From assembly GCA_040776945.1 (NCBI GenBank), contig JAXGZN010000002.1:320001-384000 (forward strand): DNA of 64,000 nt, written 5' to 3'. Positions 2,437 to 51,431 of this stretch are shown one piece after another. The translations under genes were made by a program, and so were the position numbers. The notes below the pieces were generated by a model. That model was not told where the DNA came from and ran no database searches. It worked only from the letters and a program-made list of their open reading frames with translations. The first letter of the stretch is position 1. Each line of letters starts with the position of its first letter. Source of the stretch: Methanomassiliicoccaceae archaeon. GTDB taxonomy: Archaea > Thermoplasmatota > Thermoplasmata > Methanomassiliicoccales > Methanomassiliicoccaceae.

Positions 2437-2465
2437 TCAAGGGGAAGATGTTAGGGCACTTATGA

Positions 2466-6513: not shown

Positions 6514-6820
6514 TCATTGAATGTTCTTGAGGGCGGCGTAGGCCACCGCCGCCCCGCTCAAGATGTCGTGCACCTCGTTGTACACGGGGGACAGGGAGGC
6601 GATGTAGTATCGGCCATTGGGCTGCCCGGAGAGCTCCTTGACCTTCTCCACGAACCCCGGGCCGTAGACGGTGTCCTCCGGTCGCCGGGGACCACGCCCA
6701 CATGACGTGGGCGCGGTATAGATCGAGTAACAGAGGGACAGAAGCCATCTCCGATTCCACGATGCTGTCGGAGCGGACGTCCTGCTCGTCGAAGGTCATG
6801 AAGGCGTCCCAGCGCGTCCC
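6514..6820 (-). pseudogene. Frameshifted GC-rich gene remnant, unknown function
   Basis: MTFDEQDVRSD...HVMWAWSP continues in another frame as PEDTVYGPGFVEKVKELSG...AYAALKNIQ* with coding-like codon bias. Confidence 0.4.
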
Positions 6821-7431
6821 TACGGCTTCATTGAAGGAGCTTGGTCAACATATGGCCTTGGCCGGGAAAATGACGAGAATGGCCGTTTCTGGGGCTCAGG
6901 CAGACGATGGTGAGAACCCAGGTAGGCGCTATCGATCAATCTCGACTAGGCCGGCAGTGTACGCCCTCCATTGCTGCGTTGGGCCGGCCCGACAGTTTAT
7001 CATGGAAGCGTCGTCGGCGCTCGCCATGGATTGTTAGGGCGTAAATGGGTACAGCATGAAGCCGATGGTGAACCGAACAAGATGTGGTCATCGCGGGCCT
7101 TCTCAACGCCCGTGGGTCGAGAGCGCCAATTCCCAATATTCCACCTAGATGGTACATGACGGGTCCGGGTCGTCAAGGGGCCCTACCGGGTCCTCCACTC
7201 CATTTGGCTCCAATCGGTCCCGGCTCCCGGAGGTTTTTCAATTATTTTCACCCGCTTCATGAACCAACAGGGTGGTTTCAGAGGTATTATCGAAAAGGAC
7301 GAAAACCTGGGACGAACGAGCATCTAGCCACGATAGGATCCAAGATATGAGAACCTGTGATAGACGCGACGGCTGAAGAGGAACAACTAGGAATGATCGC
7401 GGGCAAAGGCAAGCGATCGCCATGACGGCAG

Positions 7432-8955: not shown

Positions 8956-9025
8956 AGTGGTTGAAGGGATACCACTATAGGCGAGGGACCCCCTCAATAT
9001 GGAAGGAAAATGGTTTTTTTCTTAT

Positions 9026-10168
9026 CTACAGTGATTGAAGGTAGATCTGGAACCCCGGATGGGACATCCCATTGATGTGGGACATACAAAGACCGGTCGC
9101 TTCGTCCACCACGTAGTAATCGGCGGAGCTGTAGTGATATGGTCCGCCACCCTCGACACCAAGCTGGATCATCAAATGGGCCGTATGGCTGGAGATGCCT
9201 GGACAGTGGTACCAGTTCCAAGAGTAATAGCTGTTATAGCTTGAGTCTCCGGACCTTTCCAGTTCCGTCAGGGTACCATCATCGTTCACCATCCACACCT
9301 TCTCGAAATAGCTCGATGCGGTCAATGTAGAGCGGACCATGCCTTCGTAACGGGCGGTCCGGGAGGTATCGGTGAAGTTGAAGTGGTACACTCCGCCAGG
9401 TGTGAAGCCGTAGCTCGTTCCCACCACGACATGATCGAACATGTACGGTTGATCGTGATACTTGCCGCCGCTGCCGTATACCTTCATATCGTATGTCCGA
9501 GTTTCACTGATCTTCTGCCCGGTGTCCTGGTCGCAGGCGTAGGTCTTGAACTGGAACGCCCCCAGCTTGTAGACGGTCACTGTGATGGTTATGTTATGGT
9601 ACTCCGGAACGCATCTCCCAGTGTACATCCAGGTCCATCCCATCTTCTTATTTGTCGTGGTAGGATCATCCATCAGTAGGCCATGGCATCCCGTGGCATC
9701 GTTGTTCAGATTGACCTGCACCGTCCGGCCGTCCGGGGCGGTGGCGTTGACATACACCTCATTATTCGACAATCCGACGAACTGGACCGTTACGCCGATA
9801 TGTGCCGCGTCGGCCTGCCTCTCCACCCAGGTGTTGATACGCCCCAAGGTTGGGTCCCCGAAGGAGGGCGTTGCATAGTGGCCAATGTATGGCGTGAACG
9901 GTAATATTGTGTCCAGTTCGATGTTCACGAACGGCTCGTCCTTGCAAAGATCAGGGCATCTACACCAAGGCCCATACGCCGGAGCCGCGGCGACATCGCT
10001 GGAAAGCGGTGACGTCTCGCTCGATCCTAGGTTTGGAGCCAAGATCTCATCATCGTTGACATAGCCGCCTGATGTCGACGGCGACTGGTAAAGCAGCACA
10101 CCGGACACTCCGCCGATCATCAGAACCCCGACCAAAATGGTCGCTACTCTAGTATATCTCCCATCCAT
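9026..10168 (-). CDS. Secreted/membrane-anchored hypothetical protein
   Basis: 380-aa ORF with an N-terminal hydrophobic helix, Ser/Pro linker and beta-rich, aromatic-rich body; ends in TAG. Confidence 0.7.
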   Translation of the reverse strand: MDGRYTRVATILVGVLMIGGVSGVLLYQSPSTSGGYVNDDEILAPNLGSSETSPLSSDVAAAPAYGPWCRCPDLCKDEPFVNIELDTILPFTPYIGHYATPSFGDPTLGRINTWVERQADAAHIGVTVQFVGLSNNEVYVNATAPDGRTVQVNLNNDATGCHGLLMDDPTTTNKKMGWTWMYTGRCVPEYHNITITVTVYKLGAFQFKTYACDQDTGQKISETRTYDMKVYGSGGKYHDQPYMFDHVVVGTSYGFTPGGVYHFNFTDTSRTARYEGMVRSTLTASSYFEKVWMVNDDGTLTELERSGDSSYNSYYSWNWYHCPGISSHTAHLMIQLGVEGGGPYHYSSADYYVVDEATGLCMSHINGMSHPGFQIYLQSL

Positions 10169-10565
10169 CTCTCGTATCCTCCAGTTCCGGCCTCTTAGAT
10201 CGATGATCGCATGGCCGGCACTCAGGCCATATTGGAAACGCCCCTGATTGCTATTTCAGGGCCTCCCCCTAACCAGCCGCACGATAATGCGGAATCGTTT
10301 TTTAAAGATATAATAATGGTCGCATCTTGATAATTAGGCGGATGCTCGAACCTTAGAAGCTTGGCGAGGTTAACATCTATTGGCCTATTGCCCATGCAGG
10401 CATATTGACCGTCGCTGTTCGAGAACCGATCGGACCGACCTTCTGCTATCCACAAAGATCCGTATTATATGCGACATCTCAACCTAGACCACCTATCAAG
10501 ATGATCTCGCACTAAGAACAACTACTGGTTCATATCTGATAAGGTAATGGGGCATCTTCTTCCTG

Positions 10566-11701
10566 GCCGTGTTGTAAAAGTCAACTGACGAAATCTGAAG
10601 TCCGATTATCATCTGTTATCTATATTGTTATCAAAATGCATAAGTGTGGTCCAACCTATTGCCAGTTGTCCAAAAAGGTGATAGATTGGTTGCCACGACA
10701 CTAGCAATAACGAGCGAAGTATTCAAATTTTCCTGAGTTCGTCTCGACACGTTCGCGCTCGATCTCGAGCTCGTTACGGTCAACCTCGACCGCTACGACG
10801 ACGTGGCCAAGCACTCGTTCCGCTTGTCGCTCGAGGCGATTCGCCGGCACGCTAACGAGTTCGCTTTCTGGCAGCGTCGAGCGAGCAATGGACGACCGCC
10901 GACGGACGAGAGAACGCTTCTCGTGGCGTTCCTGCTCCGAGAGATTCTTAATCTGACGTTCCGCGAGACGGAGGGCATGCTGGAGATGTTCCGATCGCAT
11001 TACTCTCTGGATCGAATTCCGGACCACTCCACGCTCTCTCGCAAGCTGTCGTCCAGGCGTTGGACGACGGTGCCGGAGCGGTCCTTTAGGCATCTCGTGG
11101 ACGATATGCCGCCACGAGCAGCGGTCGTGGCGACGGACGCCACTGGCTACTCGGGACGCAAGCGCTCGTGGAGAGAAACGAAGCACGCTTGGCGGGCGAA
11201 AGAGGACTGGGTCAAGGTGCACGCGACCGTGGAGGTTGATGAGTTCATCGTTCTTTCGTACTCGCTCACGAAGTCGAACGTGCACGACAGCCAGGCGTTC
11301 GCTTCGGTCTGGGACCGGCTACCGAACAACGTGACGCCGAGGCGCAGTCTCGTCGATTCCGCTTACGTCGGCAACGACTGCCTGGAATCGGCTCGGAAGC
11401 ATGGAGCGACGCCGCTCCACGGCATCAAGAAGAACGCTCGCCTGGTCTCGAGGCCTTCGAACCTCTATCAAAAATTGGTCAACTTCGCTCGTCACTCACC
11501 TAACCGGTTCAAAGCGCAGTACACCAAGCGCGCGCACGCGGAGACGGTGTTCTCGATGATCTCCGCGCTGCTCGGGCACCGATCAAGATGCAGTACGAAG
11601 AATGGTAAGAAAAACGAGGTTCGGGCGAAGCTCGCCCTGTTCAACTTGATCCGGCTGGCCATGCGTAAGGAGTTCTGGTCATAGGAATTTTGCAACATGG
11701 C
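10566..11701 (+). mobile_element. IS5-family (archaeal ISH1-like) insertion sequence
   Basis: Right end TTTTGCAACATGGC (11688-11701). Best left match is GCCGTGTTGTAAAA (10566-10579, 12/14); a weaker alternative left end lies near 10684. Confidence 0.6.
10803..11684 (+). CDS. IS5-family DDE transposase
   Basis: IPDHSTL, VATDATG, WVKVH, VHDS, VDSAY and YTKRAHAETVFS motifs; start uncertain. Confidence 0.85.
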   Translation: MAKHSFRLSLEAIRRHANEFAFWQRRASNGRPPTDERTLLVAFLLREILNLTFRETEGMLEMFRSHYSLDRIPDHSTLSRKLSSRRWTTVPERSFRHLVDDMPPRAAVVATDATGYSGRKRSWRETKHAWRAKEDWVKVHATVEVDEFIVLSYSLTKSNVHDSQAFASVWDRLPNNVTPRRSLVDSAYVGNDCLESARKHGATPLHGIKKNARLVSRPSNLYQKLVNFARHSPNRFKAQYTKRAHAETVFSMISALLGHRSRCSTKNGKKNEVRAKLALFNLIRLAMRKEFWS

Positions 11702-11753
11702 TATACAATGATAGCACAGGCCACTTCAAAAATATGGGAGATGACATTACTAA

Positions 11754-12365
11754 TCATTTATTTAGATGGCATCCTATGGCAACCATTATTCTATCGATTG
11801 ATGGCTGAAGCATTGACTCCACAGTAATTTTACACCACGGTTTTGTCTTTTTTACGATAAATATGATAGAATAATCTGTTGTAATTATCTCAGTCTCAAC
11901 ATCAGAAGTGGCAGGGGGTAATACTGAAAGTCTGATTTTATATAACGGGTAACCAAATTTTGTCGTGTCTAGTTCTAGAATTTCAGATTTCTTGTTTTTC
12001 ACTTTATTCTCGCTCTTGAAACCGATATTATCTAATTTTACCATCGAGGCTTGATAAAGATCAACCTCCTCGTTTAATTGGAGCGGCGGAGGTAGTTTTT
12101 GAATCAGATCATTTGGACAATCATTTTCATCCTCATTTATTAAATGGATTTCCCCGCTGTTATGATATGACGCATGAGCTTTTTGGTAGCGACATTTTGG
12201 TATTCCTTTATCGTCTTTTTCCCAATATGGCAACTCAATGAACCAATAGATGTCTACTTGTGGGTCACCTGACGATTCTGTCAAGCTATTACGATATTCA
12301 ATCTTCAAAATACTCCTCTTTGAAGACTTATTTTTTGCGACTAGGCGAATTGTACAATCATTCAC
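11754..12365 (-). CDS. Hypothetical protein (AT-rich)
   Basis: 203-aa ORF in AT-rich DNA; no motif recognised. Confidence 0.6.
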   Translation of the reverse strand: MNDCTIRLVAKNKSSKRSILKIEYRNSLTESSGDPQVDIYWFIELPYWEKDDKGIPKCRYQKAHASYHNSGEIHLINEDENDCPNDLIQKLPPPLQLNEEVDLYQASMVKLDNIGFKSENKVKNKKSEILELDTTKFGYPLYKIRLSVLPPATSDVETEIITTDYSIIFIVKKTKPWCKITVESMLQPSIDRIMVAIGCHLNK

Positions 12366-12600
12366 ATAGACACAATTACCATTAACTAATAAAAACTGAC
12401 TTATTTGGTGGATGGGTGCGAACTGAGATCAACGGGCTGATCGTTTAGATTGGATGCTTATGACGAACCGCTTGGTTCGCCATTGTCCCCCCGGCATCTC
12501 CGTCCAGGAACCACATGGTGGAGAAGATATCGTCGTCCCCTGCTTGCCCATCACATTCATCTACCTTTGTTAAATAAGGGGTTCGATAGCGGATCGATAG

Positions 12601-13166
12601 GAGCGTTCCGTACGAGAGAGCATCATTGAACACATCGGCGCGCAATATGTCGGCGATGCTCTGAAGAAGTGGAACGAGTGCGAGCTGCTGGCAGCCTTTC
12701 TTGTCCTCAATGAACGTCAGGGAAGAGAATTTTGTGACAAAGAGGTCGATCCAATGCTCCCTGACAGAGGTCCGGGCGAACGCCCTATTGCTGATATTAC
12801 CTTAAAACGTGGTCTCCACTCAACCTCGTGAGGGTGATACATCTGCCTCACATCGTGGAAGAAGTCCACAGTTTACCAACCTTTGCGAGCAAGAGGAAGG
12901 AGCTCAGGGGCCGTAAACTTGATGGCGTTTACTTCGAGCTCGAGATGGCCCAATATTTTCACAACGAGAAGCTTCCTGGTTCATTCATCCCCCCTCTGAA
13001 GGGCCAGAGACAGTGCGAATTCATCCTATGCGATAAGATCTACATCGAATGCAGCGGCGGAGCTGATCTCAACCTCACATGCCTGGAAGGTAGATGGATT
13101 GAGTTCGACGGCCGTTCTAATCTTCGGTTGAGGAGCTTGAGAGCTAACGTCACTCGCCTTTCTTGA
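12601..13166 (+). pseudogene. Frameshifted remnant, possible PD-(D/E)XK nuclease-like protein
   Basis: Coding-like frame 12601-~12829 shifts into ORF 12828..13166 containing YFELEMA...CEFILCDKIYIECS, which resembles a degenerate E..PD..ExK pattern. Confidence 0.35.
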
Positions 13167-14027
13167 TCGATCTCTCATATCTCAGCAAGTGCTGGAGCCT
13201 GTTTGGTTCAACCTTCAGCTCGTTCAGCAGCCTCAGGATGTTCTGTTGCGGGCTGATATTATTCCTTGGAGGGTTCGTCTCGATTAAGCCAGAAATGTCC
13301 AGGCTAGGGTCCACCCTGATATTGTCTGGCGGCTTGGAGTAATCGGGGTGGCGGCCTATATGGTTGCATATGATCAACGTGGAAGGTGGAAAGCGCCCGA
13401 CCAGCCCTCTTATCCTTGGCGTTATTACATGGCCCACACTGGGCCCAGCCTTTCAATATCTTCCTTCACGACCATTTTTAACATCCCCTCCATGCGTACG
13501 CTGCCGTCCATGAACACGGTTCCAGGTGTTCCTACCGACTTCATGCAGATAAGGTTCAAACCGCCTACGATCTTGCCGCCCACCATTCCGGAGAACGCCA
13601 TGACTGCGGATATGTAGTCCTTGCTACCTTTCAGACAGGACAGGATCTCCGACGGGTCCATGTACCTGATCACTAGATATGGACGGTAGGCTATATTTTG
13701 GTCGATCACCGACTGTGCTAGGGCCGCTTTTTCAAGGTCGGTGGCCAAGTTGTAGGCGAACCAGTTAGCCATCCCTTCGACCATGGCCCAGTCCTCCCCG
13801 ATTTTCTTTATCATGTTGAACTCCTCCTCTGGCAGGTCCCCGTAGAGAAAGTGGTGCCATATCTCGTGCACGACCGCCATCCGGGCCTAGGCTCTGAAGC
13901 AATCCTCTCCGGGGAAGTCAAATAAACCGCTCTCAATCTTCTGAGCCCTATCCCTCAACAGCTCCGGGCACACGAAGATGTTGCCGCTCGCTCTCGACAC
14001 CTGAAGGATTATCCATCCACAATCCAT
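13150..14027 (-). pseudogene. HEXXH zinc-metallopeptidase-like protein, broken
   Basis: IFVCPELL...FRA*ARMAVVHEIWHH...VEGMANW. In-frame TAG at 13887-13889 and an apparent frameshift near 13435 into ORF 13150..13437. Confidence 0.55.
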
Positions 14028-38529: not shown

Positions 38530-40593
38530 TTAGTACAAGCGGCGGGACCTCATCAGGACGATCAGCACGGCGGCAAGCACTCCGAAGATGGCCGCGCCGC
38601 CGACGATGATCATATCCTGGCCGATCCCCGCTCCCTCGGAGGACGCCTTGGCCTTGACGGTGAGGATGGCGCTCCGCTCCGCGGTGAGGCCGTCGGCCAT
38701 GACCGCCAGCACCGCTATCTTGTGGCTCCCCTCGGTGAGGCCCGTGATGTCGTATCCGGCGGCATCGCTTCCCAACGTTGCGACGACATGATCGTCCACC
38801 AGCACCTCGATGCGGTCAACCTCGGCCCCGGAAGCGCTGAAGACCCAGGTCAGCCGAACGGCATCGCCGACCGAGTACGAAGGGCTCAGGGGGCCCAACA
38901 TCAAGGACACGCTTCCGAGGGGGCCGTCCGGCCAGCCCCCGGATGCCGCGGTGAATGAGGTCATGTTCTGACCCCAGCGGCCGTCGGCGTCCATGGCCCA
39001 GATGGTCACGCGGTGCTCCCCGGCGCTCAGTCCGATGAAGGTGACGGACCTGAGGGCCGGATCGACCGTCCTGTTCTCCTCCCCGTCCAGGGAGGCGCGG
39101 AGTTCGGCGATGCCCGACATCGAGGTCACTTGGAACGGGACAGTGGCGGTGGTGGACGGGTACGCTCTCCCCGGTTCGGAGAAGGTGATCACCGGGTCCA
39201 TGGTCTCGATCGCTATGACCTCGGTCCTCTCGCTCTCGATGTTGCCGGCCCGGTCGGTGGAGTAGTACCGAACCAGGTGAGCACCGCCATTGGAGATGGT
39301 GACCTCCCCGGCATAGCGGGTCCAGGCGCTGGAATCGACCCGATAGTACGTCGAATCGACGCCCGATCCCTCGTCCACCGGGGTCAGCGAGAACGTGGCG
39401 GGGCCAGCGTAGGTGCTCTCGCCAACGCTGTCGCCGCTCACCGAGATGTCGGTTGCCGGAGCGGCGGTGTCCACCACGGTATAGGCTTCAGGCTCGGACC
39501 TCATGGCCTCGTTCTCCCCGTTCACGTCGAATCCCTGGGTGAAGAACTCGTACCTTCCGTCGGCCGGTGCGGTGAACGATATCGGGCTCGAGTAATGGTT
39601 CCCGCCGTACATGGTCCATCCGCCGCTGCTCCCCTGCCGGTAGTAAAGGTTGACATGGTCGAACGGCACGGAGGGCTGGTTCACGGTGAAGCCGATCTTG
39701 AACGTACGGGAGCCCTGCGCTGAGGCCAGGTTGTCCACGCTTGTGCTCACCGGAACGTTGCCGGGTGCGTCCGACCCGGTGACGATTATGTCATCAAGGT
39801 AGACGCCCTCCCTCATGCCGCCGTTGATGATGCGGACTCCTTGGGCGGCGAAGGCGTCGTCGGCGTCGCCGCCCTCCGGAGCAATGGTCCCGGACACGAA
39901 CTCGAAGCCGATGGCATCGATATCGTTGGGCACACCGATGCTCACATGGATCCATGTCCTAGCCGAGGCCTGGAACTCGCTGTCCGTCCACAGGACCCTT
40001 TTGGTCGCGGGGTCATTGCGGTCGGTCCAATAGAGCACGTTCAGGAAGTCGTACCCCACGCTCTCGCCGGTCAAGGGCTGCTTGGCGTCCGAGGCCCCGG
40101 TGTCGGACCAGAACCAGAAGCTGAGGGTCACGGTGCTGAAGGCGGACGCTCCGACCACCGCCTTCTTCATTATGGAGTCCTGGCCGGTATCGTACCTCGG
40201 CACCCACTGGGACTGGGGCGTGGTGCCCGGAAGGCCGGTGACATTGACGTTCCATGCCTGGGTGTATCCTATGTTGCCGTCGGCCTGGGTGACCGGGACA
40301 AGATAATGGCTGTTGTACCCGGTCCTGGACGCGTAGATGGCGTGGGCGCTATTGAGCAGATTGTGCGCGGAGCGGCACCAATAGTCCTCATTGACCATGC
40401 CGCCGGCGGCGTCCTTGTTCAGATCGAACCGTTGCCAGCTCGCGTCCCATTCAGCGTAGGTCGCTTGTTCCGCGTCCTCCCGGAGGAGGACCGCGGACGC
40501 CGGCGCTGCGGACGTGTTCACGGGCACGGACGTCAGGACAAGGAGCGAGAGCAGGACCAGTGTGCAGGCGGCGGTCAGCCTTTGACGGAGCAT
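38530..40593 (-). CDS. Cell-surface protein: signal peptide, beta-sandwich/Ig-like domains, C-terminal TM anchor
   Basis: N-terminal signal, DTAAP and YYSTDRAGN.E Ig-like motifs, hydrophobic tail followed by RSRR. Confidence 0.85.
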   Translation of the reverse strand: MLRQRLTAACTLVLLSLLVLTSVPVNTSAAPASAVLLREDAEQATYAEWDASWQRFDLNKDAAGGMVNEDYWCRSAHNLLNSAHAIYASRTGYNSHYLVPVTQADGNIGYTQAWNVNVTGLPGTTPQSQWVPRYDTGQDSIMKKAVVGASAFSTVTLSFWFWSDTGASDAKQPLTGESVGYDFLNVLYWTDRNDPATKRVLWTDSEFQASARTWIHVSIGVPNDIDAIGFEFVSGTIAPEGGDADDAFAAQGVRIINGGMREGVYLDDIIVTGSDAPGNVPVSTSVDNLASAQGSRTFKIGFTVNQPSVPFDHVNLYYRQGSSGGWTMYGGNHYSSPISFTAPADGRYEFFTQGFDVNGENEAMRSEPEAYTVVDTAAPATDISVSGDSVGESTYAGPATFSLTPVDEGSGVDSTYYRVDSSAWTRYAGEVTISNGGAHLVRYYSTDRAGNIESERTEVIAIETMDPVITFSEPGRAYPSTTATVPFQVTSMSGIAELRASLDGEENRTVDPALRSVTFIGLSAGEHRVTIWAMDADGRWGQNMTSFTAASGGWPDGPLGSVSLMLGPLSPSYSVGDAVRLTWVFSASGAEVDRIEVLVDDHVVATLGSDAAGYDITGLTEGSHKIAVLAVMADGLTAERSAILTVKAKASSEGAGIGQDMIIVGGAAIFGVLAAVLIVLMRSRRLY

Positions 40594-41116
40594 TATGGCC
40601 GGCGAGCGACCTTCTCGGACTTAGCGATTGCCATTGCCGTTATCTTCATTGAGAACAGTAAGCGCGTACCGACCGGTCTAGGCGCTCCGGCGGAGCACGG
40701 GGTCCTGCCAGGGTGATGGAAATGGCCGGTCGAACATCAGGGAGGTCATCAAAGCCAGGGACGCGGAATGGTTCGATCAAGGACAATGGGACGGAGTTTG
40801 CTCTGGCTGGTCAGGGAGGTCATTATCCATGCTGATGCTCACGTCAATCCCAATATCTATGTAGATAACAGATGTAGATCGCTGTCACGGTCCGCAGCCC
40901 GCCTTCGAAGGCGAGAGCCTAGCGGTCATCTCTTGTTCGACCGAACCGATCATGGGCTCGGGCGCCATTTCGCCTGGACCTCCCGCCCGGGCCCCCTTCC
41001 ATCAGCATCCTGTGGAGATCGAACGGCGCCGAGCTTCGCTTGTGAAAGCTCACAGCTACCTTGGGCCGCCATGTTCTCTGCTCTTCGACGCGGTCCTCGA
41101 CTCCTGTACTGTCCCC

Positions 41117-42499
41117 CTACGGCAGGTCCAGCCCCAGTAGCCTGAGGGTGTCGCACGCCGAGTCGTAGATCTTTAGGTGCTCCTTGGTCGGGAGCACGGT
41201 CTTCACGTTGTAGCACTCCTGGAACGTTCTTCCCTGGGGGGCGGTGAGATAGCGCCGCTCATAGCCGCGGACGATCTTGTGGACCATCCTGTTCACCTCG
41301 TCCACGCTCATGCCCGCCGCCAGGGTGGCGACCTCGCCGAGCATGCGCGCCTCCATTCCCGTGGTGTAGTCCTCCAGCACGCCCTTGGCGGACGCGCAGC
41401 CCGATAAAAGCTCTCGCCCGCTGGCGGTGTCCAGGAGCGCCTGGGCGGCGATCTCGTGCAGGCACATCTCGGTGCACGGGCCGGAGATGGTGTAGAACTG
41501 GTTAGCGATCAGCAGGTCCGTGTTCGCGTCGATCGCGGCGGCAGAGTGGCCGGCGACCTGCAGCGTCTCCCGTGAGGTGGTCATACCCCAGCGTATGTGT
41601 ATGGGGCCAGATAGGTGATAGCTGGCGTTGAGCAGGGTGAACGAGGCCAAGGTGGTCGCCACGTCGCAGATGGCCGTCTCCTCGATTCCGCCTATGTAGC
41701 CGCCGAGGATCGGCATCTGCTCAACCATGATAACGTTCCCGTTGTGGAGCCAGCCGGAGATCATCACCAGGCTCATGTTGTCGATCTTCAGCTCGTTGAG
41801 CTGAGACACCTCGTGGCTGTCGGTCGGCTTCATGCCGTCCTTGCCATCACAAGCGAGACGCCCCGCTGCGGACAGCGGTGTCTCAGGTCCCTATATGGCC
41901 ATGTATGGTCGTCCGGCCCGGTTGCACGCTTCCCGCACCGCCCTTATCTCGGCGAGCGTGGCCTTGATCTCGAACGGCGTGTTGGTGCTCGACGGGATCC
42001 CCCCGACCGTGGCCATGACTCCGTTGACAAGGGTGTCCACGACCGGCTCCTGGGCGTAGCTCTGCATCATTGGCACGAACACGTCCTCGGAGACCGTGGC
42101 CCCGGTCGGCCCGCCCTGGATGACCGGCTTCTTCGGAGCATTGGCCCGGCGGGGCTCCAGGACCACCTTCTCCCCGTACTCTCCCAGCTGTATGCGCTTG
42201 GGAGCCCCTCTGATTCCCGCCTTGACCTCGTCCTCTGTGACCCTTATGACGCGCTGGGTATCGACGTTGAGGATGCCGACCGATACCAGCATCTCCATTC
42301 CCGCCTGGAACAGCCTCTTCTTCAGGTCAGGGTCCACCGGGATGAACTTATCTCCAAAGTCCAGCTGGTACTTCTCTTTGAGTTCCGCCGCGGCGTCGGG
42401 CACGGTCTTGTTGTCCCATACGTTCTCGGTGGTCATGGGACCCCGCTCCGAGCGCAGGTAGGTCTCATAGACGGTCAATGCCTTCTCGATCGACGCCAA
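41117..42499 (-). CDS. mtmB: Monomethylamine:corrinoid methyltransferase 2 (Pyl at in-frame TAG 41891-41893)
   Basis: ORFs 41891..42565 and 41117..41833 are in one frame; RPYMAI-TAG-GPE. Likely TTG start 42499 after GGAGAG puts Pyl at codon 203. The terminal codon is also TAG. Confidence 0.93.
41855..41884 (-). promoter_or_regulatory. Candidate Pyl-insertion stem-loop downstream of mtmB2 UAG
   Basis: GAGAC-A-CCGCTG-TCCG-CAGCGG-GGC-GTCTC, starting 6 nt after UAG; identical to the copy in mtmB1. Confidence 0.6.
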
Positions 42500-42519
42500 A
42501 GTTGCTCTCTCCAATGCTC

Positions 42520-43161
42520 TCACATCATCAGCGCGTTGACCCTCTGGACCACCATGGACCCGCACTCACAGTACGCGTCACCGCCGATGTTCTCCACCCA
42601 CTTGCTGGTGCAGCAGGCGCCACCGAATATGGTCTTAACATTGAAAAGTTTTTCTTCCTTGAGACGCTCGATGATCTTCCTCTGGCCGACTAGGGTGGTG
42701 GTCATGAGCGCCGAGGCTCCGACGATGCTGGCGTTCATCTCCTTCGCCGCCTGGGTGAACAGGTGAGGGGGAACGTCCTTTCCTAAGTCATATACCAGGA
42801 ACCCGGCGCTCCTAAGGAACGCGGACACAACGTGCTTCCCGATCTCATGTATGTCCCCCTCCACGGTCCCTATGACCACCACGCCCTTGGACGGGATTTT
42901 CTCCTCGCCCATATGCCTCTCGTAGATGTTGATGGCCTGGGACATCGCCTGGGACGCGGCCAGGACCTGGGGCAAGAACATCCTGCCCTCGTTGAACATG
43001 TCGCTTATCTCCGCCATGCCCGCGCCGAGCCCCTTCTCGATGGCTTCCGCCGGACTGATGCCCATCCGCACCGCCTCCGTGGCGGCAGACACAGCCAACT
43101 TCTTATCGTATCTCATCACTGCCTCTTTCAATAAGGCCAGTATCTCGTCCTTGCTTCTCAA
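42520..43161 (-). CDS. mtmC: Methylamine corrinoid protein 2
   Basis: MFLPQVL, GDIHEIGK (DxHxxG) and SALMTTT motifs; TTG start after GGAGGAG; directly upstream of mtmB2. Confidence 0.9.
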   Translation of the reverse strand: MRSKDEILALLKEAVMRYDKKLAVSAATEAVRMGISPAEAIEKGLGAGMAEISDMFNEGRMFLPQVLAASQAMSQAINIYERHMGEEKIPSKGVVVIGTVEGDIHEIGKHVVSAFLRSAGFLVYDLGKDVPPHLFTQAAKEMNASIVGASALMTTTLVGQRKIIERLKEEKLFNVKTIFGGACCTSKWVENIGGDAYCECGSMVVQRVNALMM

Positions 43162-43338
43162 ACTATCTCCTCCCACACTCCGTTCCCACCGTTCCCTCCA
43201 AACGATAATCGCGAAGTCCCACTCAGTGTTTCGTGATTGTTAAGATATGCACCTGTAAGTACAGAATGATTTCGGGAAGAAGAGAGCAAGACTCCGCCGG
43301 GACTCCGGCTACAGCATGGCCTGCAGGGGCGCCTCATA

Positions 43339-44976
43339 TCACGCCTCTCCGCTCTCACCGGCCCTAAGTATCTTGATCTTCATCACATGCTCCGGGCATA
43401 CCAGCTCGCAGCGCTTGCACGCCGTCCCCAAGCATAGGTCGGACCGGACCCTGACGCGGGGCACATCGCCGTCGACGATGACCAGGGCCTTCTCGGGGCA
43501 GGACGCCTCGCACTTGCGGCACAGGATGCATCCATCGAGCTTTCCGGTGAGCACGGTACCCGGGTCCCGGAGCACGGTGATCCCCAGCTCCCCGAGGTCG
43601 GGGATGTCCCGGCTGACCTTCCTCTCGACCATGGCCTCCACCGGCTCAAGCCGCAGATGCGGCAGCGAATAGATGTCCAGCATGTCATTGTACGACGCCA
43701 TCGGCATGCCGTAGGACCACAGGGAAAGCTCGATGGAGTAGAGGTTCTTGAAGGTCTCCGAGGTCGCGAACATGCAGTGGGTCGCCCGGAGCTTCTTCGC
43801 GAACTCTCTCAGCTCGTCCAGGTCCTTTCTCCCGGTGGTGATGTCGCGGGCCATGGCCAGGGATGTGTTCCCATACTGAATTATCCTGGTCGAGCCCGGC
43901 GACACCATCCCCACCCGCTGGGCCTTCCCGGCGTCGACGTACAGCCCGGACGCGCCGGACATGAACGAGGTCGGCACGTCGTCCACCCATATGCCCGCTT
44001 CCCTCATCAGCGTGAGGTAGCCGGAGCGCAGGGCGCCGATGGCCTTCCCTGCCTCGGCCACGTCCCCCTCGGTGATGAAAACGCCGTCCTGCAGATGCAC
44101 CCTTGCGTCCGGCGTGGTGATGCGGGGCAGCCGGACGAGCCCGCTCCGCAATCCGCAGTCCAGGGCCGCCACCACCCCGGTACCGGTGATGCCCTTGGCC
44201 CGGCTGTGCATCTCCCCTCTCGCCTTCAGACCTCCGTTCTCCGGTGCGATCACGTCGCCCCGCCTAGCCTCGTAACCCTCGTCGAGGACCCAGCACTCCC
44301 AGCCGTCCTCGGTGATGTTGGCGTCCGAAATCGTCCCCGGAGCGGCTAGCATGCCCATCTCGATTTGCTGCCCCTCCAGAGCCGGCCCGGCGGCGGCCGA
44401 GCCCGAATAGATCTCGCCGTCCTTGATCAGCGCCATCTCCGCGTTGGTGCCATAGTCGATGACCAGGCACGGCTCCTCCTGCTCCAACGCCCCAGTCATG
44501 AGCAGCATCGCCAGAGCGTCCGCTCCGATCTCGTGCCCGACCGCCGGAGGTATGATCACCGAGGCGTCGCCTATCAGCCCCAGGCCGAGCTCGGCGGCGC
44601 CCACGATATCACCGTCCCTCTTAGGAGGGACGACCTTGAGCGTCTCTAGCATCCGCTTTCCGGCGTACGCCAGGTCACGGATCTCTATCTTCTGGAAGAG
44701 CGAGAGCTGGAACGGGTTCCCGCATACCCCTAAGGTGGTGACCTTTCCCAGATCGACCTTCAGGAGAGGGAACAGCCTGGAGACCGTATCGATGATGAGC
44801 CGGTTCGCCTCGTCCTCGCCCGCGTCAATGGCGAAGTTGATGTGGTCGATGACGTTCGAGCCGGGAATGGGATGCCTCGAGGTTATGGCGGTGGAGATGG
44901 TCCTGCCGTCAGCTAGGTCGATGGCCTGTGCCCGGAACCCGCTGGTCCCCAGGTCGAGAGCGATCCCCAGCGGCAT
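43339..44976 (-). CDS. ramA: Methylamine corrinoid protein reductive activase
   Basis: LDLGTSGFR, DYGTNAE and SAAAGPALEGQ motifs plus a C-terminal 2x[4Fe-4S] domain (CILCRKCEASCP, CLGTACKRCELVCP); TGATG overlap with pylD. Confidence 0.93.
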   Translation of the reverse strand: MPLGIALDLGTSGFRAQAIDLADGRTISTAITSRHPIPGSNVIDHINFAIDAGEDEANRLIIDTVSRLFPLLKVDLGKVTTLGVCGNPFQLSLFQKIEIRDLAYAGKRMLETLKVVPPKRDGDIVGAAELGLGLIGDASVIIPPAVGHEIGADALAMLLMTGALEQEEPCLVIDYGTNAEMALIKDGEIYSGSAAAGPALEGQQIEMGMLAAPGTISDANITEDGWECWVLDEGYEARRGDVIAPENGGLKARGEMHSRAKGITGTGVVAALDCGLRSGLVRLPRITTPDARVHLQDGVFITEGDVAEAGKAIGALRSGYLTLMREAGIWVDDVPTSFMSGASGLYVDAGKAQRVGMVSPGSTRIIQYGNTSLAMARDITTGRKDLDELREFAKKLRATHCMFATSETFKNLYSIELSLWSYGMPMASYNDMLDIYSLPHLRLEPVEAMVERKVSRDIPDLGELGITVLRDPGTVLTGKLDGCILCRKCEASCPEKALVIVDGDVPRVRVRSDLCLGTACKRCELVCPEHVMKIKILRAGESGEA

Positions 44977-45833
44977 CAGATGGCCTCCATCCACACCGCT
45001 CTGCCCTCTAGCAGAGGGGCGCGCGGCAGGGACAGACTGGCGCTCCAAACCGCCATCACCGAAACTCCGATCTGCAGGGGATCGTGCACCAGCGTCGCCA
45101 TCTTGCGGATGCCGATCTCGTCGAAGGAGAAAGGCATCCCCGGGGACGATACCACGCATCCTTGCTGGACCCACTCCCCTGGTATCCTAGCCGGTGAAGC
45201 GTTCAATATGAGGTCGTGACCCTTGACTGCCTCCATCAGGTCATCGCAGACCGTGAACTCCCTGAACTTCGATCTCAGGGCTTCCGCCTTGGAGCGATCG
45301 ACGTCGACCACCGTGACCTTCGCGCCATTCCTCGCCAGCAGCTCGGCCGAACAGCTCCCGACCCGTCCAGCGCCGATCAGCAGGACGTCCCTGCCTCTCA
45401 GGCCGCCGGCGGCCTCCCGCAGGGCGGTGAAGTAGCCAAGAGCGGTGGACCTGATGTTGTTGACGGCCCGCCGGGCCCGGCAATTGATCGCCAGGAACTC
45501 GTTGTCGTCGGCCATGAAGATGAGGTCGGCCCCGGACCCCAGCGCCTCGCCGAGGCCGGCAACGTCGGTCTCCTCGGTGACATATGCCTTCGGCCCAAGG
45601 TGCTCGACGATGGCGCAGACCGATTCCGAGAAGCCCGCGGTCGCGCCGAGGCCAGCGGTGACAGGGACGCACGCGGCCGTAAGGCCCTCCATGTCCAGTT
45701 CGTGGAGGTCTATCCCCACGGAGGTGTAGGCAAGCTCCTTCATGGTCATTCCCAGGGCCCTGGCGAGGGACGAGTCCCGCCCCTGTGAGGAGGATGGCAC
45801 GTCCCTGATCATCTCCGGCGTAAGTCTGGTCAT
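44976..45833 (-). CDS. pylD: Pyrrolysine synthase (dehydrogenase)
   Basis: MTRLT, VPVTAGLG...GFS, FMADD, IGAGRVG and HDPLQIGV motifs; position in the pyl operon. Confidence 0.93.
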   Translation of the reverse strand: MTRLTPEMIRDVPSSSQGRDSSLARALGMTMKELAYTSVGIDLHELDMEGLTAACVPVTAGLGATAGFSESVCAIVEHLGPKAYVTEETDVAGLGEALGSGADLIFMADDNEFLAINCRARRAVNNIRSTALGYFTALREAAGGLRGRDVLLIGAGRVGSCSAELLARNGAKVTVVDVDRSKAEALRSKFREFTVCDDLMEAVKGHDLILNASPARIPGEWVQQGCVVSSPGMPFSFDEIGIRKMATLVHDPLQIGVSVMAVWSASLSLPRAPLLEGRAVWMEAI

Positions 45834-46987
45834 CAGATAACCTCCTCTGAACCCTCGAGACCCTCGGCGCGCGCGATCTCCCGGATGCACCTGGTCCTCT
45901 TCTCCCTGACGAGCTCAGAAGTGCTGCCGGAGAACATCAGCGTCCCCCTCCAGCTCCTTGCTCCGGGCCTGTGATCGGTCATCGCGTCATCAGCGCCGAA
46001 AAGGCCAGGAGCTATCCTGGGGGATCGGACCTCGGCGAACCCCCTCTCTCCGCACGACCGCATGCGGCCATCGTCGGCGGCGATGTGCTCGTAGACCGAC
46101 GCGCCCTGCCTGACGGGGCCGGCATCCTCCAAGCGGCCATGGACCAGCGCTCCCACCAGCCGCTCCAGGAGATTGACTCCGGTAGCGTGGTATACCGCCG
46201 CGGGGGTCTGGCTGGGGATCCGCGCGTCGATCTCCAGCACCTTTGGGACGCCGCCGCACACGATGGCCTCAACGTCCATGATGCCCCGGAGCCCCATCCC
46301 TTCCGCGATCTTCCTCGCGATGCCGGCGAAGGCAGCCTCGACCGAAGGTTCCAGCCCCTCAGGGGGGCAGCGGACCATGCGGCAGTCGTACCCTGCGTCC
46401 AGAACAACCTCGGTGATCACCATGGGCACCGCCCGAGCTCCGTCCCCGATGACCTCGATGGAGATGTTCGGCCCTTCCACGAACTCCTGGACTATGGGCT
46501 CCTCACCCAGCGCCCTGACCGCCTCAATGCCCATCTCCAGCTCCTCCGGCCCGCTCGCCTTCGCCACCCCTACGCTCCCGCTCTGCCCGGAGGGCTTCAC
46601 CACCACGGGGAAGCCGCAGTTCGGCCAGGGTGACGGAACAGGGACCCCCATCCGCTCGAACAGCTGATTGGAGTGCAGCTTGGACGACGAGATCTCGTAG
46701 GCCCTCATATCGAAGAGAAGGGGCGTTTCCAGCTCTCGGAACATATCGCTCAGGCATATGAGCGCAGCGTAGTTTTCGTTGGCCGGGAGGACGGCATCGC
46801 AATCCTCCAGGACCTTGGCCGCCCGTCCGCGTTCCAAGGTCACGTCCAGAACGACAGCCTCGTCCGCCAGCGACAGAGCGGGGGCGTCCGTTCGGCGGTC
46901 CACCACGAGGGTCTCATAGCCCGCCTTCCGGGCCAGATAGGCGGCTTCCATCCCCTGCAGGGCCCCTCCCACGATGCCAAGCTTCAT
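45833..46987 (-). CDS. pylC: 3-methylornithine--L-lysine ligase (ATP-grasp)
   Basis: GGALQGMEAAYLA, VKPSGQSGSVGV and LEIDARIPSQTP motifs. Confidence 0.95.
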   Translation of the reverse strand: MKLGIVGGALQGMEAAYLARKAGYETLVVDRRTDAPALSLADEAVVLDVTLERGRAAKVLEDCDAVLPANENYAALICLSDMFRELETPLLFDMRAYEISSSKLHSNQLFERMGVPVPSPWPNCGFPVVVKPSGQSGSVGVAKASGPEELEMGIEAVRALGEEPIVQEFVEGPNISIEVIGDGARAVPMVITEVVLDAGYDCRMVRCPPEGLEPSVEAAFAGIARKIAEGMGLRGIMDVEAIVCGGVPKVLEIDARIPSQTPAAVYHATGVNLLERLVGALVHGRLEDAGPVRQGASVYEHIAADDGRMRSCGERGFAEVRSPRIAPGLFGADDAMTDHRPGARSWRGTLMFSGSTSELVREKRTRCIREIARAEGLEGSEEVI

Positions 46988-48087
46988 GTCCTGACCCCCC
47001 TGTCCGCGGCCTTCCAGTTCTCTACCAGCGACGAGTAGGCGGAAGGCATCGCCATCCTGAGACCCAAGCCGTCCAGGATCTCCTCTACCTGAGGGACCGT
47101 CCGTCCGCCGGCCTCGATATCTAGGTCATGCTGCGCCACCCCGGCCAGACCGTGGCTGGGAGGTATTATCGAAGTGATGACATTGGCCCCCGCCACCAGC
47201 CTGGACCGTAGGCCGCCGATCCCCTCAACGTCCAGGCTCGCCGGTATCAGCCGGTCGGGGTACATCAACCTCATTATCGCTATGGCTGTCAGCTCATCTC
47301 GGAACAGGGCATGGTCGCGCTCGGCCATGGGCGTATTGCTCTGGGGAACGAACCCCATCGCCCTCACCTGCCGGACGCCCAGCTCGCCCATGATCTGGAC
47401 CGATCTTGCTCGATCGGCCGCGGTCTCCCCCACGCCGACCATGATCCCCTCCTCGGCCAGCATCCCGGAGTTCATCGCCCATTTCTTCTGGGCGAGCCTC
47501 GTGTCATAATCCTGCCCCGGCCGGAGGAAGGAGAACAGGGCGCGGTTATGTGTTTCCTGGTAGCAGGCGAACCAGTCCCCTCCGGCCTGCCTGAGCCTGG
47601 GGAACACCTCCTGGGGGACAACGCCCGGAGAGACCATCAGGGGAACCTCGACCGCATCGTTCACCCTCTGCACAAGGTCCACGAGATTGGAGCAATCGCC
47701 CCCCTGGTGCATATGAGGGTCCTCCCCCATGGTGAGGTCGACCAGATGCACCCCGGAGTCCTCAAGGGCGGTGGACAGGTCAATGATCTCCTCCAGGGTC
47801 TTGCGGTACCTTACGCTATGGTGGTTCGTGCTGCGATAGAAGCAGAACGAGCAGTTGTTGCGGCAGTAGGTCGAGAAGTACACGAACCCGTAGCAGAACA
47901 CCGCACTGCCGAAGTGCCTCTCCTTGACCTCCCTGGCCGCAGCGAACAGGTCGTCCAGCAGGGTCTGGTCCTTGATCGAGAAGAGAACCTCAAGGTCCTC
48001 TGCAGACGCTTTCGACCCATTCTTCAGACCGGATATCAATTCCTGCGCGCGGCAGGCGTCCGGTGAGCTCCGCCCCCTATATGTCAA
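46984..48087 (-). CDS. pylB: 3-methylornithine synthase (radical SAM)
   Basis: YGFVYFSTYCRNNCSFC, LTMGED, YQETHN, IPASLDVEG and GANVITSIIP motifs. No ATG near the start: TTG 48087 (overlapping the pylS end) or TTG 48039. Confidence 0.93.
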   Translation of the reverse strand: MTYRGRSSPDACRAQELISGLKNGSKASAEDLEVLFSIKDQTLLDDLFAAAREVKERHFGSAVFCYGFVYFSTYCRNNCSFCFYRSTNHHSVRYRKTLEEIIDLSTALEDSGVHLVDLTMGEDPHMHQGGDCSNLVDLVQRVNDAVEVPLMVSPGVVPQEVFPRLRQAGGDWFACYQETHNRALFSFLRPGQDYDTRLAQKKWAMNSGMLAEEGIMVGVGETAADRARSVQIMGELGVRQVRAMGFVPQSNTPMAERDHALFRDELTAIAIMRLMYPDRLIPASLDVEGIGGLRSRLVAGANVITSIIPPSHGLAGVAQHDLDIEAGGRTVPQVEEILDGLGLRMAMPSAYSSLVENWKAADRGVRT

Positions 48088-48904
48088 GGCGGGCCCCCCG
48101 CAAGTACATGAGGCTTCGCCCAACCTTCTTGATGTTGCTAGCTCCGGTCTTCACCATGAGCAGGCGTTCCAGTCCATAACCGGCTCCCACCCAGGCATCG
48201 GTAATCCCATGAGCGCCATCGAGCCTGTGGGGCCCACATGCCGCCGAGGCCACCTCGATCCCGTTGACTTCCACGTCCAGAGTGTCGCCGTATACCTCGG
48301 AATCGGTGGTGCACAGTTCGTAGTCCAGACCGACGGTCCTCATTATAAGGTCGATATGCGCCCTAAGGCAGGTCATGGGATCGCCTTCCGGGGCCATCTC
48401 CACCAGGTTGAGCATGGTGAACTCCTCGAGATGGTCTGAGCCGCGGCTCTCCTTCCGATAGCAGGTCCCGATCTCGAACATGCGCAGGGGCATCTTCGCC
48501 GTGCGCTTCAGATGACGCATCAAGAAATACAGGTTCGGGGCGAGCATAGGTCGGAGGCAGCGCCCCTCGTCCAGCCAGAACACCTGGTGATGAAGAGGGT
48601 GCGAATCGTCGATCCCCATCTTGGACAGCGCTCTTGAGGAGATTATGGTCGGGGTCCTGACCTCGAGGAAACCGTTGCTGATGAGAGCATGAGCGAGGAC
48701 CTCCTCCAAGTGGGCCAATCGGTCCCGCTCGGGCCGTTTCTGAACATACCTTATCTCCTTCCGGTTGGCGGCCTGGTGATGCGCAACCTCAACAGCGAAC
48801 GCCTCATCCCGTTCCTCGCTGGTCTCGAACCTCTTGATCACATCAGGGGTCCCGCCGAGCTCCCTCAGCCTCTGCTTCTGAGATGACGTCCACTCAATGG
48901 CCAT
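48077..48904 (-). CDS. pylS: Pyrrolysyl-tRNA synthetase lacking the N-terminal domain
   Basis: 275 aa; QKQRLREL, LRPMLAPNLY, YRKESRGSDHLEEFTMLN and GAGYGLERL motifs; ends in TAG. Confidence 0.97.
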   Translation of the reverse strand: MAIEWTSSQKQRLRELGGTPDVIKRFETSEERDEAFAVEVAHHQAANRKEIRYVQKRPERDRLAHLEEVLAHALISNGFLEVRTPTIISSRALSKMGIDDSHPLHHQVFWLDEGRCLRPMLAPNLYFLMRHLKRTAKMPLRMFEIGTCYRKESRGSDHLEEFTMLNLVEMAPEGDPMTCLRAHIDLIMRTVGLDYELCTTDSEVYGDTLDVEVNGIEVASAACGPHRLDGAHGITDAWVGAGYGLERLLMVKTGASNIKKVGRSLMYLRGARLDI

Positions 48905-48946: not shown

Positions 48947-49018
48947 TGGCGAAGTGCCCGGGAGTCGAACCCGGCTGCCGCGGCTGTAGAGGCCTGGTGG
49001 TCGCCGGACCAACACTCC
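48947..49018 (-). tRNA. pylT: tRNA-Pyl (anticodon CUA)
   Basis: GGAGTGT T GGTC CGGC GACC A CCAGGC CT CTA CA GCCGCGG CAG CCGGG TTCGACT CCCGG GCACTTC G CCA: folds as a cloverleaf with a 4-nt D loop, 3-nt variable loop, G discriminator and encoded CCA. Confidence 0.97.
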
Positions 49019-50051: not shown

Positions 50052-51431
50052 ATGGCACTTGCAAGACCACTATCAGTCTTTGATGTGTACGACCGCTTCA
50101 TGAAGGGCAAGAAGGTCACCGAAGCGGAGTGGGACTACCAGATCATACCCACCAACGCGGCGGCGATGAAGAAGAAGTACAACATCAAGTTCGGCAAGGA
50201 AATGATCCCCGAGGACAAGGATCTGAAGAACCGGCTGTTCCAGGCTGGAATGGAGATGCTGGTCACCACCGGGTTCTACAACTCCGATCTCGGCCGTGTC
50301 ATGAACATAACCGAGGAAGAAATCCGGGAAGGGATTAAGAAGACCCCCACCAAGCTTCTCCTGGGAGAGTACCGTGACGCAGCCAGGTTCGAGCCCAGGC
50401 ACGGCAACGACAGGAGAAAACCGATCATCCAGGGAGGGCCGACCGGAGCGCCTGTCTCTGAGGAAGTGTTCGTCCAAGTCATGCAGAGCTACGCCCAGGA
50501 GGCTACTGTAGATACCCTGGTGAACGGCGTCATGGCCACCATCGAAGGCCACAGCGCTACCACCAACACTCCATGGGAGATCAAGGCGGAGCTCGCAGAG
50601 CTCAGGGCAGTGAGGGAGGCCAGAATAAGGGCCGGACGACCATACATGGCCATATAGGGACCTGAGACACCGCTGTCCGCAGCGGGGCGTCTCGCTACGA
50701 ACCTTCTTGGCGGGCTGAGGCCTTGTGACTCCCACGAGTGCTCGCAGCTCAATGAACTAAAGATAGACATGGCAGCCCTCAACATGCTTTCCGGATGGAT
50801 CCTCAACGGGGATACCATCATGATCGAGCAGATGCCGATCTTCGGGGGGTACTGCGGAGGGGTCGAGGAAACTGCCATCTGCGATGTGGCCACCCACCTG
50901 GCGTCGTTCACCCTGTTCAACGGGAACTTCCACCTGGACGGTCCGATCCACATCCGCTGGGGCATCACCACTTCTCGGGAGACGCTGCAGATCGCCGGCC
51001 ACGTGGCCGCCGCGGTCGATGCGAACACCGACCTGTTGATCGCCAACCAGTACTACCCCATATCGGGTCCCTGCACCGAGATGTGTCTACTCGAGACGGC
51101 CGCTCAGGCCATGGTGGACACTGCCTCCGGTCGGGAACTGCTGTCCGGGTCCGCGGCCGCCAAGGGCGTGGCCATGGACAAGACCACCGGTATGGAAGCC
51201 AGGATCATGGGCGAAGCTTCGATTGCGACCTGTGGCATGAAGATCTCCGACGTCAACGAGATACTCGAGAAGCTGGTCAGCTCCTACGAGGGCAACTACC
51301 ACAAGCCTCCTGCCGGCAAGCGCTTCCAGGAGTGCTATGACGTCAATACCGTCAAGCCCACCGACGAGTACCTGAAGGTCTACGACAACGTTGTCAAGAC
51401 CCTGAGGGACCTCGGCCTAGCGATCAAGTGA
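50052..51431 (+). CDS. mtmB: Monomethylamine:corrinoid methyltransferase 1 (Pyl202, TAG 50655-50657)
   Basis: In-frame TAG at codon 202, the same position as Pyl202 of Methanosarcina MtmB; GPE, SHE, IEQMP and NQYY motifs follow. Confidence 0.96.
50664..50693 (+). promoter_or_regulatory. Candidate Pyl-insertion stem-loop downstream of mtmB1 UAG
   Basis: GAGAC/GTCTC and CCGCTG/CAGCGG stems with a UCCG loop, starting 6 nt after UAG. Confidence 0.6.

Follow-up and report, generated by a model that had tools for sequence, protein, structure and literature searches.

A pyrrolysine methyltransferase gene that also ends in TAG in a Methanomassiliicoccaceae archaeon with frequent TAG stops

The mtmB2 gene and its neighbors

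The window, as the whole stretch of DNA analyzed here is called, is 64,000 nucleotides (nt) of contig JAXGZN010000002.1 from a Methanomassiliicoccaceae archaeon, and all coordinates are positions in it. It contains mtmB2, a monomethylamine methyltransferase gene with TAG both at the conserved pyrrolysine (Pyl) position and at its end. The gene adjoins pylT-pylS-pylBCD-ramA-mtmC, and the archaeon, of the Methanomassiliicoccales type, shows no avoidance of TAG stops. The arrangement exemplifies, in a Pyl archaeon with high TAG usage, the ambiguity already known for UAG; the observation is confirmed, and a special meaning for it is unsupported. The genome under study is designated G000, and other G numbers denote the genomes of relatives. 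The gene and its in-frame TAG and TGA codons are as follows.

41117 to 42499, reverse strand: mtmB2, a monomethylamine methyltransferase paralogue of 460 amino acids including Pyl, with a TTG start and a TAG stop (Pfam MtmB)
41891 to 41893, reverse strand: internal TAG at the conserved Pyl position, TAG in all 76 of 76 mtmB genes of the alignment
41117 to 41119, reverse strand: terminal TAG in the context CCG UAG GGG, unchanged in DNA and RNA contigs
40922 to 41116, reverse strand: 65-codon read-through extension, non-coding in character by codon score and by alignment of six loci
40919 to 40921, reverse strand: next in-frame TAG 3' of the end of mtmB2, from frame translation
40844 to 40846, reverse strand: TGA, the first in-frame stop other than TAG, 90 codons past the terminal TAG, from frame translation

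The product of mtmB2 matches the Pfam profile PF05369 (MtmB) with 736.2 bits (cut-off 25) over profile positions 1 to 450 of 450, at full length and without a frameshift, and the match stops four residues short of the terminal TAG. Together with the in-frame TAG at the Pyl position, this gives mtmB2 two features expected of the MtmB family. Its paralogue mtmB1 is 64% identical in amino acids and 68% identical in nucleotides over the whole gene, with 54% identity at third positions. As a preliminary description of this DNA had stated, mtmB1 ends in LRDLGLAIK followed by TGA at the site aligned with the terminal TAG of mtmB2. The TTG at 42499 is likely to be the start codon rather than the GTG at 42565, because it is aligned with the start of mtmB1. 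In the open reading frame (ORF) at 40844 to 42565 of the reverse strand, obtained by translating the frame of 40700 to 42565 with TAG as O, Pyl is residue 225, the second TAG is residue 483, the third is residue 549, and the first stop other than TAG, the TGA, is codon 574. This translation bears out every position in that description: the internal, terminal and third TAG, the 65 residues between the latter two, and the TGA beyond. Judged by its sequence, mtmB2 is an unremarkable gene for a Pyl-dependent monomethylamine methyltransferase, and its product is predicted to carry out methyl transfer to the cognate corrinoid protein.

DNA contigs from two runs of different studies (X12, covering 40400 to 42958, and X14, covering 40400 to 41881) show no change at all three TAGs. 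Contigs from two RNA libraries, X15 (40973 to 41881) and X17 (40940 to 41120), span the terminal TAG unchanged. Because the DNA and RNA contigs agree, the terminal stop is not a miscall, which was one of the cases named at the outset as fatal to the observation. The sequence of mtmB2 is thus found in RNA libraries of two studies, where carry-over of DNA is possible. An error made in sequencing or assembly, or a pseudogene in decay, was also considered; the agreement of the contigs, the full-length Pfam match, and the presence of the TAG in four other species rule against it, and we regard it as next to impossible.

The DNA beyond the terminal TAG does not look like coding sequence. The 65-codon extension scores -0.078 per codon, compared with 0.151 at the 5% quantile of genes. 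Among the six closest orthologous loci, the 330 nt after the stop cannot be aligned (32 to 41% nucleotide identity when forced), the read-through peptides are unrelated, and the distance to the first stop other than TAG varies from 23 to 90 codons. A conserved, coding-like extension, as expected of programmed read-through, was thus not found for mtmB2, and the description of the 65 residues as non-homologous holds. These results bear on the proposal that the terminal TAG, too, encodes Pyl, so that the true protein carries a C-terminal tail to the next stop. The frame is indeed open for 65 codons, and the UAG-GG context is that of the Pyl site, but the codon score is non-coding, no homology is found in any of five orthologues, neither the Pfam profile nor mtmB1 extends past the terminal TAG, and the tail would itself end at another TAG. 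The proposal is therefore extremely unlikely.

The RNA contigs stop at 40973 (X15) and 40940 (X17), before the third TAG, which weakly hints at an mRNA 3' end ahead of that codon; their depth is low, and contigs cannot show transcript ends. At neither point does the sequence have a T-run or a clear 3' end. A few bases past the TAG at 40919 to 40921 there is a 14-nt palindrome, CGCCTTCGAAGGCG, at 40900 to 40913 of the reverse strand. It folds as a 7-bp hairpin that may act like a terminator or serve as a binding site. The next ORF, at 38530 to 40593 of the reverse strand, is separated from mtmB2 by 523 nt. It encodes 687 amino acids and has no Pfam match; its sole NCBIfam match is to an OmpL47-type beta-barrel domain at residues 395 to 460.

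The other genes of the cluster are listed below.

42520 to 43176, reverse strand: gene for an mtmC-type corrinoid protein, TGA stop (Pfam B12-binding; TIGR02370 with 213.0 bits and an E-value of 2.6e-63, just below the cut-off of 215.3)
43339 to 45174, reverse strand: ramA, corrinoid reductive activase, TGA stop (TIGR04270, 714 bits)
44976 to 48123, reverse strand: pylD, pylC and pylB, all with TGA stops; these are ORF limits and the true starts are uncertain (TIGR03911, TIGR03909 and TIGR03910, above their cut-offs)
48077 to 48904, reverse strand: pylS, 275 amino acids, without the N-terminal domain, TAG stop at 48077 to 48079 (TIGR02367, 280 bits)
48947 to 49018, reverse strand: pylT, tRNA-Pyl (CUA), the sole copy in the genome (ARAGORN)
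50052 to 51431, forward strand: mtmB1, with its Pyl TAG at 50655 to 50657, a TGA stop, and a PYLIS_1-like element at 50655 to 50754 (Pfam, 798 bits; Rfam, 50.0 bits)

The Pyl system is complete, with pylT found by ARAGORN and pylS, pylB, pylC and pylD found by NCBIfam models above their cut-offs. Directly upstream of mtmB2 are mtmC and ramA (Pfam, NCBIfam). The paralogue mtmB1 lies 7.5 kb from mtmB2 on the opposite strand, and the spacing of about 9 kb from mtmB2 to mtmB1 recurs in G005, G010 and G012. Throughout the family mtmB2 is next to pyl genes. The match of PylS to the full-length NCBIfam model is confined to the C-terminal part, and the protein is of the class without the N-terminal domain known from Methanomassiliicoccales (PMC3941956, PMC9630628). 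The genome has 37 tRNAs, one of which is pylT, and two ORFs with an eRF1 domain, which are taken to be aRF1 and Pelota; hence there would be a single aRF1. No Pfam match to MttB or MtbB was found in the genome, which is 99.8% complete, and therefore the recognizable Pyl genes are the two mtmB genes only. Pyl thus seems to serve just two MtmB proteins in a genome where about 22% of ORFs stop at TAG. In the RNA libraries, a 68-nt unitig common to both paralogues has a depth of 266 compared with about 10 for contigs specific to mtmB2 (X15), and 42 compared with 7 to 14 (X17). Roughly read, these contig depths suggest that transcripts of mtmB1 are far more abundant than those of mtmB2.

TAG as a stop codon in the genome and in mtmB2 orthologues

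TAG is a common stop codon in this organism. Among 1776 ORFs of at least 100 amino acids, 1180 end in TGA, 399 (about 22%) in TAG, and 197 in TAA. The TAG share is 18% among ORFs of at least 500 amino acids and also 18% in the best-scoring quartile, and relatives have similar shares of 16 to 22%. Backup stops are not enriched after TAG, as the next stop comes a median of 28 codons later, compared with 25 after TGA, and 26% of the TAG-ending ORFs have at least 65 codons before the next stop. Given that TAG is a common stop and that there are two Pyl genes, a TAG ending in one or both of them has a chance of about 0.4, so the ending of mtmB2 is not beyond chance.

Proteins with complete domains end at TAG, and orthologues terminate at that position by TAA or TGA. 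Seventeen TAG junctions (L098 to L114), chosen because the downstream in-frame extension scored as coding, give the same picture. In none of the 17 does a Pfam match span the TAG, and in nine of them unrelated families lie on either side, such as ArgC and ArgJ, TiaS and thiolase, or GDH and HTH. From these patterns we infer that TAG is a genuine stop of conserved genes beside the Pyl genes. Conservation of TAG at operon-internal junctions compared with other junctions (4 of 8 and 28 of 57) involves numbers too small to use. Same-frame neighbors parted only by a TAG occur at G000:C2:959441-961690 and 16 other places, and read-through would fuse them.

The distribution of stop codons among mtmB2 orthologues suggests inheritance rather than selection. 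The search covered every one of the family's 24 species genomes in the collection. Five of the 15 orthologues end in TAG (G000, G005, G006, G010 and G015), three in TAA (G002, G012 and G017), and seven in TGA (G014, G016, G018, G019, G021, G022 and G023). Control genes at the family level, some rows of which are duplicate pieces of one genome, end in TAG at similar rates: argC in 5 of 23, tiaS in 9 of 25, otsA in 6 of 21, and sufBD in 2 of 20, or 22 of 89 in total. Stop identity is thus not conserved above background. The preliminary description had called for a check of the terminal codon in orthologues; the TAG is kept in five of six genes of the close clade, and there is no sign of selection in the family as a whole. 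At the genus level, ordinary orthologues of genes that end in TAG in G000 keep it in 11 of 28 cases (G005), 18 of 30 (G010) and 3 of 7 (G015). The TAG of mtmB2 is kept in three of four same-genus orthologues and in G015 of the neighboring genus, which is compatible with this background. A metagenome scan for mtmB2 orthologues (67 loci) added one more close orthologue ending in TAG, L042, with a tail identical to that of G005.

In a quick maximum-likelihood tree of 35 mtmB genes, the five TAG-ending mtmB2 genes and that of G002 form one clade, in which G002, with TAA, is the sister of G000. One TAG clade with G002 inside it implies one origin of TAG and one change to TAA. Seven of the 35 genes end in TAG, and the mtmB1-type genes of G010 and G015 gained it independently. 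We conclude from these comparisons that the terminal TAG of mtmB2 was probably inherited from the ancestor of a clade of two neighboring genera and persists neutrally, being neither avoided nor favored. The mtmB1 gene of G010 (L146) ends in TAG-GTC-TAG, and its next stop other than TAG is 265 codons on, with only TAGs between. After the terminal TAG of an mtmB paralogue in G015 (L150), only further TAGs occur for 453 codons before TGA or TAA. Two distant MtmB-like genes, L080 and L091 (31 to 34% identity), likewise end in TAG.

The orthologues also bear on the idea that the terminal UAG was selected as a regulator, either a band-pass or a governor. Abundant Pyl-tRNA would then lead to an extended, inactive or unstable MtmB2, which would limit its output or sense the supply. 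Five of the six orthologues in the closest clade keep TAG, somewhat over the background of 39 to 60%, and they do so although the TAG is one codon further on in G005 and G006, so weak selection is possible. mtmB2 stands beside the pyl genes family-wide, and the stop of pylS, also in the cluster, is almost invariably TAG. The RNA contigs end before the next stop, which gives a weak hint that read-through ribosomes would run off the mRNA. Against a regulatory role, the TAG frequency in the family equals that of the controls, the sister species G002 has TAA, nothing is conserved downstream where the extensions vary in length, mtmB1-type genes gain and lose TAG freely, and the RNA contigs stop at points with neither a T-run nor a defined 3' end in the sequence. 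The band-pass proposed at the outset was arithmetic on assumed equal read-through and has no support in the sequence. Selection of the terminal UAG as a regulator is very improbable.

Sequence context of the internal and terminal UAG codons

The internal and terminal UAG codons differ in their surroundings. Three features are found at the internal site.

41794 to 41893, reverse strand: PYLIS_1-like element beginning at the Pyl codon of mtmB2 (RF01982, 63.7 bits, E-value 1.4e-12; fold z-score -2.68)
41855 to 41884, reverse strand: local hairpin GAGAC-CCGCUG / CAGCGG-GUCUC, 6 nt 3' of the Pyl codon, from pairing counts
41852 to 41919, reverse strand: 68 nt around the Pyl codon, identical between mtmB2 and mtmB1 (50629 to 50696), where assembly graphs break exactly

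The PYLIS_1 match in mtmB1, at 50655 to 50754, has 50.0 bits and an E-value of 9.3e-9. In both genes position 1 of the model falls on the Pyl UAG, and both scores are below the Rfam gathering score of 70. The Rfam search gave no PYLIS_1 match at the terminal or third TAG. When the 103 nt after each TAG were compared with shuffled sequences, fold z-scores were -2.68 and -1.61 for the internal sites, +0.11 for the terminal TAG, and +0.15 for the third TAG. The preliminary statement that no hairpin follows the terminal TAG therefore holds. Immediately 3', the internal and terminal sites do not differ, as both read UAG-GG. In 76 sequences from the order, 83.3% of cells in the local hairpin are pairable, compared with 34 to 57% for slid partners; these counts were made on a structure named by hand and lean towards it. 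Compared with PYLIS_1 itself (RF01982), described for Methanosarcina mtmB1, the element likewise starts at the mtmB Pyl codon and matches the full-length model from 1 to 100. It differs in that it scores below gathering and several consensus pairs are non-standard here, and the shorter local hairpin fits the family better.

The paralogue pairs share genome-specific synonymous variants just after the TAG, with GGA CCT in G000, GGT CCG in G005 and GGC CCG in G010, and the G015 paralogues likewise share their own. This indicates concerted evolution, and gene conversion therefore contributes to the identity of the 68 nt.

We consider it probable that mtmB2 is an ordinary Pyl gene in a high-TAG genome, with a neutral, inherited TAG stop and with competition at UAG influenced by context. 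From work on Methanosarcina, Pyl-tRNA(Pyl) and the single aRF1 would contest every UAG. At the internal UAG, the PYLIS_1-like structure and the long conserved nucleotide context may favor Pyl, and termination there would yield a useless fragment of 202 residues. At the terminal UAG most ribosomes would terminate, because no favoring context is present. A minority would add Pyl and the 65 unconserved residues up to the further UAG, and these products would presumably be tolerated or degraded. The occurrence of the PYLIS_1-like element only after internal UAGs fits, without proving, context-assisted competition between Pyl-tRNA and the release factor. The preliminary description saw in the two codons a natural internal control: two UAGs do lie on one mRNA, and their contexts differ in PYLIS_1 and fold z-score, and there is no sign of design or selection. 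Because the element and the fold occur only at the internal UAG, the contrast that it drew is real, while an effect on decoding is putative. PYLIS reportedly raised the amount of full-length product in vivo in experiments by Longstaff and colleagues in 2007.

Several points weigh against this reading. Covariation in the hairpin is weak, with 4 of 12 pairs changing on both sides in 9 cells, a level reached by 1 of 500 shuffles. RNAalifold on the 76 Pyl-site contexts gave 0 pairs and no consensus structure. Paired sites have a third-position entropy just slightly below that of the others (1.21 compared with 1.54 bits), and with a score below gathering the element has thin support as a structure. 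The ORFs were called with a self-trained codon model in a home-made caller, which may inflate the TAG share. The retention of TAG in the close clade, described above, points the same way. Published opinion holds that Pyl insertion does not need PYLIS (PMC8211752; bioRxiv 10.1101/2024.09.30.615893).

Some of these points favor pure competition without any effect of context. Both UAGs would then be read through equally, at a rate set by the supply of Pyl-tRNA relative to aRF1, and a mixture of truncated, correct and extended MtmB2 would be tolerated. The conserved nucleotides would reflect protein constraint and gene conversion rather than an RNA signal, which agrees with the weak covariation, the lack of an RNAalifold consensus, the concerted evolution of the paralogues, and the UAG-GG context shared by both sites. 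Reviews also say that no cis element is needed for Pyl (PMC8211752, PMC9499178). On the other hand, an Arg codon in the stem is CGU in 53 of the 61 sequences that have CGN there, whereas AGG is the commonest at four nearby Arg columns. The PYLIS_1 E-values of 1e-12 and 9e-9 occur at Pyl codons only, where the fold z-score reaches -2.68. In addition, mtmB of M. acetivorans has the clearest ribosome peak at UAG among three methyltransferase genes (PMC13663744). Pure competition is thus the less favored account and is unlikely.

The pylS stop codon and relation to known systems

The stop codon of pylS is more striking than the mtmB2 finding and is the lead most worth following. The TAG at 48077 to 48079 stands in the context AUA UAG GG, and the next stop is a TGA at 47990 to 47992. 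The end of the TIGR02367 profile, 242 of 242, falls at residue 275, which is exactly the end of pylS. Across five genera of the family, TAG is the stop of 21 of 22 pylS copies, including second copies that are just 55% identical, compared with 22 of 89 for the controls. The sole exception is one copy in G015 with TGA. In two other families of the order, all 14 of the 14 pylS copies given loci, from 55 genomes with a match, end in TGA.

Two explanations can be offered for this near-invariance. In most copies from the family the pylB ATG is 10 to 20 nt downstream of the TAG, and a GGAGG-like motif often starts with the G of the TAG. The stop could therefore be held by an overlapping ribosome-binding site for pylB. 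In about nine copies the motif is elsewhere or absent, and TAG is still kept. The other explanation is that the pylS stop may act as a read-through sensor of Pyl-tRNA supply, which is a lead and not a result. The 8-nt context of the stop, AUAUAGGG, also occurs at the Pyl sites, and AUA-UAG-GG is found at only 4 of 399 TAG ORF ends, of which two are Pyl sites and one is pylS. If the sensor exists, read-through or slow termination at pylS would bring ribosomes to the pylB start, or leave them standing over it, in a different frame, and Pyl synthesis would be tuned to charged tRNA-Pyl via the pylS stop. The broader idea that UAG stops in the pyl-mtm cluster are gauges of Pyl-tRNA supply is doubtful; pylS would be the strong candidate, and mtmB2 at most a weaker one on the demand side.

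The gene for release factor RF2, prfB, is autoregulated through its own stop codon, an internal UGA that is passed by a +1 frameshift. It is an analogy for pylS only, as in both cases the gene for a decoding factor contains a codon whose reading depends on that factor. The codons differ, since one is an internal UGA with a frameshift and the other a terminal UAG just before the start of pylB.

The closest experimental system is M. acetivorans, where UAG is read as both stop and Pyl through competition between tRNA-Pyl and the release factor (Shalvarjian et al. 2025, PMC12626013; Britt et al. 2026, PMC13663744). Its pyl genes are induced on methylamines, and the UAG of mtmB is a strong pause site (PMC12626013; PMC13663744). 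Its PylB has a C-terminal in-frame TAG, for which tuning has been speculated (PMC12626013). Long and short forms of proteins coexist, and a bona fide TAG stop (rnfA) occurs beside Pyl sites. The shared principle, one tRNA-Pyl competing with the release factor at every UAG, is by likeness expected to apply here. The organisms differ in that about 5% of genes have TAG stops in M. acetivorans compared with about 22% here. In addition, the present genome has a PylRS without the N-terminal domain, only mtmB as recognizable Pyl genes, and both kinds of UAG in one ORF, all of which are known from sequence alone.

The TAG share of G000 fits the high-TAG "Group A" of Pyl archaea, with more than 15% TAG (bioRxiv 10.1101/2024.09.30.615893). 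It is above the 11.3% of M. luminyensis (PMC4153887) and inside the reported range of 1 to 27% (PMC12626013). Like G000, these organisms have complete Pyl machinery, Pyl confined to methylamine methyltransferases, and TAG as a frequent stop, and regulation of pyl genes has been proposed as a safeguard. The available parts of the papers on them describe no Pyl gene that itself ends in TAG and no TAG stop of pylS. More widely, no mention of either was found in the literature searched; the supplementary tables (Table S4 of the 2025 PNAS paper, and those of the preprint) may list such genes.

How high-TAG Pyl organisms tell insertion from stop is an open question (PMC9499178; bioRxiv 10.1101/2024.09.30.615893). 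Because both kinds of UAG lie on one mRNA in mtmB2, mRNA level and tRNA supply are equal for the two, which would make the gene a convenient test-bed for context in a cultured relative. Of 15 mtmB genes sampled in the two closest genera, seven have TAG as their stop. TAG stops are thus not avoided even in mRNAs that depend on UAG suppression, which argues that read-through of ordinary stops is either rare or cheap. As evidence from sequence, the mtmB2 arrangement itself adds no new principle; it is predicted by unbiased TAG usage.

Two minor features lie at the other end of the window. Positions 1 to 14000 have a G+C content of 38 to 54%, compared with about 62% in the rest, and may be an acquired island. 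An ORF at 4179 to 5552 has a sub-threshold match to polysaccharide synthesis (23.4 bits, cut-off 28.2).

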